DNA of 22,599 nucleotides from an uncultured Candidatus Saccharibacteria bacterium. GTDB lineage: Bacteria > Patescibacteriota > Minisyncoccia > Phycocordibacterales > DATGWK01. The position numbers were made by a program, and so were the translations under genes. This document shows, piece by piece, positions 11,171-11,200 of this stretch. How positions within the stretch are numbered: position 1 is the stretch's first letter; each line of letters begins with the position of its first letter. Below the pieces are notes generated by a model. It did not search any database. It was not told the origin of the DNA and saw nothing but the letters and a program-made list of their open reading frames with translations. The stretch covers positions 1-22,599 of the forward strand of contig CAYRZH010000008.1 in NCBI GenBank assembly GCA_964428845.1. Reading direction: 5' to 3'.

Positions 11171-11200
11171 GGTTTCTGGGCATGGCCACGCCCAGAAACC
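11171..11200. promoter_or_regulatory. Near-perfect 30-bp palindrome (11-bp perfect arms, 8-bp spacer) between two divergent promoters; candidate operator
   Basis: GGTTTCTGGGC-atggccac-GCCCAGAAACC. The reverse complement differs at only 2 of 30 positions. It abuts the -35 of the minus-strand promoter on one side. The TTGACA(11206-11211)-N16-TAAGAT(11228-11233) promoter of the 11254 gene lies on the other side. Confidence 0.5.

Follow-up and report, generated by a model that had tools for sequence, protein, structure and literature searches.

Does the short intergenic region between two divergently transcribed genes of a tiny-genome CPR bacterium hold an operator that controls both? The initial annotation of this window (the whole stretch of DNA analysed, 22,599 nucleotides, which is an entire 22.6-kb NCBI contig) had singled out a near-perfect palindrome with 11-bp arms between the promoters of an MBL-fold hydrolase gene and a gene encoding a 157-aa protein, and had taken it for the binding site of a dimeric regulator that co-controls the two promoters. 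We analysed the palindrome, its neighbouring genes and the corresponding loci of related bacteria. The palindrome is real and non-random. Judged from the sequence comparisons below, it is no conserved control element and can at most be called a candidate site for regulator binding. The reading we favour, tentatively and at somewhat less than an even chance, is an operator-type site: a dyad bound by protein and specific to this lineage.

The palindrome and the promoters beside it

Reading the sequence, we found the left arm GGTTTCTGGGC at 11171–11181, the centre atggccac at 11182–11189 and the right arm GCCCAGAAACC at 11190–11200, just as previously described. The symmetry proved to be longer. 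An outermost extra pair (A11170/T11201) extends the perfect arms to 12 bp and, since the inner TGG/CCA of the 8-nt centre are complementary too (aTGGCCAc is nearly symmetric itself), positions 11170–11201 form a 32-bp palindrome without strand. Its halves, AGGTTTCTGGGCATGG and CCACGCCCAGAAACCT, meet at an axis at 11185.5, and 15 of 16 positions are complementary, the sole mismatch being A11182 versus C11189.

This symmetry is far above chance, which favours an operator. With spacers of up to 12 nt, the longest perfect arm in the window measured 12, and 60 composition-preserving (block) shuffles gave a maximum of 11, reached in 3 of the 60. The 26-nt core, with up to three mismatches allowed, occurred once in the window (0.03 expected from shuffles), and no further copy of the 11-mer arm with fewer than two mismatches was found there. 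As a DNA hairpin, the palindrome folds with −13.3 kcal/mol (z = −4.5), and none of 200 shuffles folded equally well. It is the best inverted repeat of the whole contig and is present there as a single copy. Its very quality also speaks against an operator, given that most operators are shorter than 32 bp and less perfect than 15/16.

A terminator had been considered implausible at this position, and our results agree: the flanking genes diverge, and the stem is followed by no T-run on either strand (tails TTGAATTG and TATATTCC). The terminator scan around the palindrome listed only 11735 and 11524, and the genuine terminators of the contig (11735–11753 and 14789–14820) do carry T-runs. Divergent genes without a T-tract argue for an operator and not a terminator. 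The operator reading also draws on the Rfam search of positions 11050–12000, which returned no match at the gathering threshold and none at E ≤ 1.

The divergent arrangement itself was confirmed. The MBL-fold hydrolase gene (Lactamase_B_3, E 2e-28) occupies 10493–11131 on the minus strand and the gene of the 157-aa protein 11254–11727 on the plus strand. For the latter, the promoter scanner predicted TTGACA-16-TAAGAT (11206–11233, plus strand, 10/12 matches), of which the −35 begins 4 nt past the palindrome, and a Shine-Dalgarno sequence (AAGGAG) lies at 11243–11248. The sequence TTGACAAAAC of this promoter occurs also upstream of the homologous gene of a sister lineage (locus L043). On the minus strand, the near-leaderless MBL promoter proposed by the initial annotation was not called by the scanner, and gained support from its relatives. 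Sequence reading and conservation point to an extended −10, TGCTAAAAT, of the MBL-114aa-gyrA operon (11138–11146, minus): five independent relatives (L037, L040, L043, L045 and L048) have TGCTAAAAT or TGCTAAACT (TGCTATAAT in L048) 6–9 nt ahead of the ATG of MBL. Since the last T of TGCTAAAAT lies 7 nt ahead of the A of the MBL ATG at 11131, the MBL/gyrA operon mRNA is probably leaderless. A putative weak −35-like hexamer, TTCCAA (11161–11166, minus), is located 17 nt upstream of this −10 and 3 nt from the palindrome, and is likewise found in L043.

The palindrome fills the 39-bp gap separating the two predicted −35 hexamers but for 3 nt on one side and 4 nt on the other; its placement between them, as originally claimed, holds. 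If transcription starts at about 11240 for the 157-aa gene and at 11131 for the MBL operon, as we infer, the axis is 54.5 bp away from both starts and the palindrome covers about −39 to −70 of both predicted promoters, where it abuts the core elements and overlaps none. The two narrow gaps and the equidistant axis favour an operator. Against it stands that the palindrome overlaps neither a −35 nor a −10 nor a start: a position outside the core promoter is not classical for a repressor, and −54.5 is non-standard for an activator.

Neighbouring genes and the accessory insert

The gene content of the contig is typical of CPR/Patescibacteria (gyrA, S1, Pth, signal peptidase, FtsA/FtsZ and a T4SS-type pilin array, besides a gene with a weak HisRS match), and the MBL homologues bear Paceibacteria/Parcubacteria names. 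MBL is followed by a small membrane protein, gyrA, a methyltransferase, a solute-binding protein and pilins, a conserved operon order. The gyrA gene is cotranscribed in this MBL-headed operon (window 7646–11146, minus), an arrangement common to all relatives examined. In none of the open reading frames of the 22.6-kb contig did we recognise an HTH or other DNA-binding regulator. The earlier remark that the window has no obvious regulator gene stands, and it counts against an operator.

The 157-aa protein begins with Met-Pro and consists of two beta-alpha-beta units and a basic C-terminal tail. A word-index search retrieved no homologue and no Pfam family was matched, yet an exhaustive HMMER search uncovered a family of 246 representatives, about 120 aa long and with a Met-Pro start in nearly all cases. 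AlphaFold, with the family alignment as input, modelled a double beta-alpha-beta fold (pLDDT 91), and Foldseek matched this model to CHMI, cis-CaaD and MIF (E about 1e-5) as well as to 4-OT. By its modelled fold, the protein belongs to the tautomerase superfamily of enzymes, its basic tail being unusual, and is not a DNA-binding regulator. An enzyme fold in the immediate neighbour weakens the case for an operator, and on account of the same fold we rejected the protein as an autoregulator. The tautomerase-like family was previously unnamed, with no Pfam or NCBIfam model, and has invariant R80, W109 and L112. The C-terminal tail of the window member is rich in Lys/Arg, and one homologue (P0248) carries a basic linker and a zinc-ribbon-like tail.

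Downstream of the tautomerase-like gene lies a major vault protein (MVP) homologue with MVP shoulder and Vault_3 domains (11912/11981–14731, plus). Its annotated start is the ATG at 11981 (916 aa); the longest open reading frame begins with the TTG at 11912. The initial annotation had described the 157-aa gene as the one preceding the MVP locus. The tautomerase-like gene is monocistronic, its own terminator (11735–11753) comes next, and MVP has a separate promoter (TTGACA-17-TAATAT, 11797–11825, plus), so that the palindrome-adjacent promoter serves the 157-aa gene only and does not drive the MVP locus. The closest MVP homologue is 67% identical and belongs to a sister CPR lineage, and the others, from other phyla (Riflebacteria, Myxococcota, Bacteroidota and others), are about 40% identical, which suggests that MVP was acquired horizontally. 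Directly after the MVP promoter, in the leader, we noted an inverted repeat, AACAAATAcCGCA-acg-TGCAtTATTTGTT (promoter and repeat together at window 11797–11863 and at 1–75 in locus L049). It is kept in the 67%-identical MVP locus and, by this conservation, is a better candidate regulatory element than the palindrome. Elsewhere in the window, a 457-aa protein (622–1995) gave a weak SPFH/Band_7 match (E 2.5e-4) in a GC-rich patch of about 0.51. Because the SPFH fold and the MVP shoulder domain are related, this gene may be a second acquired one.

In four relatives whose MBL is 73–82% identical (L045, L046/47 and L048), S1 is directly divergent from MBL at a distance of 100–196 bp. Synteny with these loci, together with the junctions, delimits an accessory insert of about 3.7 kb (11170–14820, plus) that comprises the palindrome, the tautomerase-like gene, MVP and the MVP terminator and splits the ancestral S1/MBL divergent promoter region. 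The GC content of the insert is 0.48–0.56 versus 0.39–0.44 in the flanks (by gene: MVP 0.53 and the tautomerase gene 0.48; MBL and S1 0.42), and the palindrome is GC-rich, resembling the insert. The palindrome lies 24 nt from the MBL −10, and in the uninterrupted L045 the −10 is likewise 24 nt away from the −35 of S1. As these alignments indicate, a lineage-specific insert begins with the palindrome, which is located outside the ancestral MBL/gyrA control region. That it now fills the gap between two −35 hexamers follows from the landing of the insert in a back-to-back promoter region.

The right junction (14798–14837, plus), which contains the loop and 3′ arm of the MVP terminator and the −35 and spacer of the S1 promoter, resembles positions 11185–11221 at the left. 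The similarity is direct and collinear, with matches of 11/12 and 14/16, and its local alignment score was equalled by 8 of 1,014 control windows and 4 of 1,000 shuffles. This likeness suggests a duplication or rearrangement when the junctions were formed. The tautomerase promoter, for its part, resembles an S1 promoter region that was copied and then diverged. Diverging genes and a minimum of the cumulative GC skew near the palindrome would suit a replication origin. We rejected this candidate: the intergenic region is too short, no DnaA-box cluster was recognisable by eye in the sequences read, and the skew tracks the coding strand.

Related loci and searches for further copies

Conservation in orthologous intergenic regions, which the initial annotation had expected of an operator, was not found. 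The palindrome is absent from the MBL upstream region of every relative fetched (L037, L040, L043, L045, L046/47 and L048), which is evidence against an operator. Besides the relatives with a divergent S1, one group has a 161-aa gene and a true terminator upstream of MBL (L037–39) and another a methyltransferase 24 nt upstream of it (L040–42). The MBL/gyrA promoter is nevertheless kept in relatives without the palindrome, and co-control of MBL can therefore not be ancestral. Of the proposed operator for both promoters, the placement between the two −35 hexamers stands, and an ancestral role at the MBL promoter does not.

Only one relative lineage (L043/44/50/51) has the same gene pair: MBL and, diverging from it, a gene whose product is homologous to the 157-aa protein (37% identity, E 7e-27). 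In place of the 32-bp palindrome, these loci contain a 186-bp near-perfect hairpin between the two genes (−95 kcal/mol, z = −11.6), which argues against an operator at the palindrome. The termini of the hairpin, GCCCAGAAGT...ACTTCTGGGC, share 8–9-mers with the palindrome arms. The shared words are reversed in order (TTCTGGGC...GCCCAGAA in the window, GCCCAGAA...TTCTGGGC in L043), and the shared 8-mer is common, with nine occurrences in 122 kb of related DNA; the word sharing is only suggestive. Homology of the two elements was rejected, for only 8–9-mers are shared and global alignments were unconvincing. It speaks in favour of an operator that the sister lineage has the TTGACAAAAC −35 region in common with the window and that the GCCCAGAA/TTCTGGGC words form an inverted repeat there at the equivalent place. 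The outer AAACC of the palindrome arm matches AAACCTCTA in the L043 flank beyond the hairpin. In Rfam the hairpin weakly resembles a miRNA precursor model, i.e. it is a generic long hairpin. The four loci differ from each other by 0.3–0.6%, with no difference inside the hairpin.

In L049, which derives from the same organism as L043, MVP lies beside S1 and is followed by a 112-bp hairpin element past the MVP terminator. Both sister hairpins (L043, 5759–5944, 186 bp; L049, 2959–3070, 112 bp) are located at island edges, and their GC-rich apices contain words that resemble each other (GAGGAGCCGTAGGCGACGAG and GCGGAGGCGCCGAGCGTAGCG). Such hairpins may represent MITE-like elements in CPR bacteria. 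A TraG-like gene is found near the tautomerase homologue in this lineage. The tautomerase-like gene of L043 (5296–5670, minus) is uncalled on L043/L044 despite its GGAGG ribosome-binding site, and gene callers may miss further members of the family.

Among the other tautomerase-family loci, L052 (equal to L053; homologue 46% identical to the 157-aa protein) carries a perfect 12-1-12 palindrome (25 bp) of unrelated sequence between divergent genes, where it overlaps both putative −35 boxes. The same architecture with a different sequence supports an operator. Two further loci weigh against it: in L063 the promoter is bracketed only by a 10-bp inverted repeat, not significant by itself, and L055 has no inverted repeat. 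No further tautomerase-family loci were found among viral contigs.

Copies of the palindrome were sought by exact-arm scans of GTDB representative genomes, JGI metagenomes and IMG/VR, sets that do not include the source genome (its own copy was not returned). Beyond its own copy, we found none in the window, in about 100–122 kb of related CPR loci or in the three collections. The dispersed repeat that had been named as a possible outcome did not appear in the window or in these collections, which favours an operator; a single known copy, on the other hand, allows no regulon to be defined and counts against one. Collection matches with the same arms were rejected as unrelated hairpins from unrelated taxa, none of them with the same spacer. 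Five of the matched contigs, from high-GC soil metagenomes (L015, L023, L028, L033 and L034), contain a repeated palindrome, GAGTTTCTGGGCAsCATGbTGCCCAGAAACTC, sometimes in tandem and at convergent gene ends, which points to a REP-like family of unrelated bacteria. It shares the 10-nt arms because the query selected for them. Three other matches (L021, L022 and L030) appear to be a eukaryote-type repeat.

Interpretation and comparison with known systems

If the palindrome is an operator-type site, it would be part of the control region upstream of the tautomerase-like gene, having arrived or arisen together with the tautomerase and MVP insert. It would be bound by one dimer, or by two, of a protein whose gene lies elsewhere in the genome, and the bound protein would touch the upstream polymerase face (the zone of sigma region 4 and the alpha-CTD) at both promoters. 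The tautomerase promoter would be the primary target, and the leaderless MBL-gyrA promoter a secondary, recently acquired one. Protein binding is here pure inference, and so is the direction of any effect.

The operator has to be weighed against the possibility, somewhat doubtful in our view, that the palindrome is a junction relic without regulatory role, produced or left behind when the tautomerase and MVP block was placed here. It could stem from a fold-back inverted duplication at the joint, from the stump of a hairpin or MITE-like element such as those of the sister lineage, or from carry-over from the donor, and would still be perfect because it is young. Such an origin fits the position of the palindrome as the very first feature of the insert, the 24-nt spacing that equals the −10/S1 −35 spacing of L045, a GC-richness like that of the insert, and the collinear direct similarity of the two junctions. 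It also fits the sister lineage, where the 186-bp hairpin sits at the same junction with termini sharing 8–9-mers with the arms, the 112-bp hairpin sits at the other island edge and the AAACC match to AAACCTCTA lies outside the L043 hairpin. A second copy, a target-site duplication, a transposase or a recombinase were, however, not seen; the shared 8-mer is not rare, its orientation is reversed relative to L043, and it would be a coincidence that the two promoters are placed exactly symmetrically around the axis. The operator and relic readings remain comparable. It is improbable that the palindrome and the sister hairpins together mark the ends of a hairpin-delimited mobile cassette system of CPR bacteria; accessory genes (tautomerase-like enzymes, a vault-protein homologue) would then be shuttled into the S1/MBL-gyrA promoter gap, and the palindrome would be a recombination or recognition hairpin instead of an operator.

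We give a similarly small chance to an 11-8-11 site for a tyrosine recombinase (Xer/dif-like or att-like) by which the island is gained or lost. Xer-type core sites have 11-bp arms and 6–8-bp centres, and the palindrome with its 11-bp arms around an 8-bp centre has this geometry; the island whose boundary it occupies is patchily distributed, and a TraG-like gene is found near the tautomerase homologue of the sister lineage. But the window holds no recombinase gene, the other junction has no partner of the arm sequence (the best arm-like match there, inverted or direct, is the 11/12 at loop level), the palindrome is unlike the AT-rich dif consensus, and diverging genes at a GC skew minimum are the opposite of a terminus. 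Slightly less plausible than a recombination site is a cruciform that tunes the gyrA operon promoter or insulates the two promoters without a dedicated protein. Divergent transcription would generate negative supercoiling between the promoters and the palindrome would extrude. A perfect 12-bp stem (−13.3 kcal/mol per strand) is located exactly between divergent promoters and the minus-strand operon includes gyrA. The MBL operon promoter, of the extended −10 type and lacking a good −35, resembles relaxation-stimulated gyrase promoters. Short arms with an 8-nt loop disfavour extrusion kinetically, though, and the same gyrA operon promoter is present in relatives that have no palindrome. As slim a chance attaches to an intrinsic terminator or a member of a dispersed REP-like family. 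The stem-loop is stable and GC-rich, L037 has a true terminator at the corresponding place upstream of the MBL promoter, and unrelated soil bacteria carry REP-like repeats with the same 10-nt arms; yet neither strand has a T-run, no gene ends at the palindrome and the window, the related loci and the collections scanned hold no other copy.

To our knowledge, almost no transcription factors are known from CPR/Patescibacteria. If it is an operator, the palindrome would be among the very few cis-regulatory sites proposed for these bacteria, and it would tie the gyrase operon promoter to a tautomerase-like accessory gene. Its main present value is that it marks the left edge of a horizontally acquired tautomerase and MVP insert; it also illustrates how this insert re-wired a conserved back-to-back promoter region.

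How does the palindrome compare with known systems? Long palindromic operators between divergent promoters include QacR IR1 (28 bp, bound by two dimers), the TetR tetO and the HrcA CIRCE element (9-N9-9). In common with these, the palindrome is a perfect or near-perfect dyad of about 27–32 bp with a central spacer that lies beside the −35 hexamers in a short divergent-promoter gap. It differs in that it has no adjacent regulator gene, does not overlap the core promoter, is unconserved and has a single known copy, and its sequence is unrelated to that of CIRCE (TTAGCACTC-N9-GAGTGCTAA). CIRCE, parS and dif were excluded or found unsupported by comparison with their consensus sequences; the outer GTTTC...GAAAC is reminiscent of parS, but 18 intervening bases exclude it. 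With intrinsic terminators the palindrome shares a GC-rich 12-bp stem and a short loop, in contrast to which it has no U-tract and lies upstream of both neighbouring genes. With Xer/dif sites it shares 11-bp arms, an 8-nt centre and its location at the edge of a variable island, whereas it does not resemble dif, has neither a recombinase nor a partner site nearby and lies in an origin-like context. Compared to REP and MITE-like hairpins, it measures only 32 bp, has no other known copy, carries the shared words in reversed order and is not accompanied by a target duplication; like them, it is an intergenic, hairpin-forming repeat, found at the same junction as the L043 element and sharing with it the GCCCAGAA/TTCTGGGC words.
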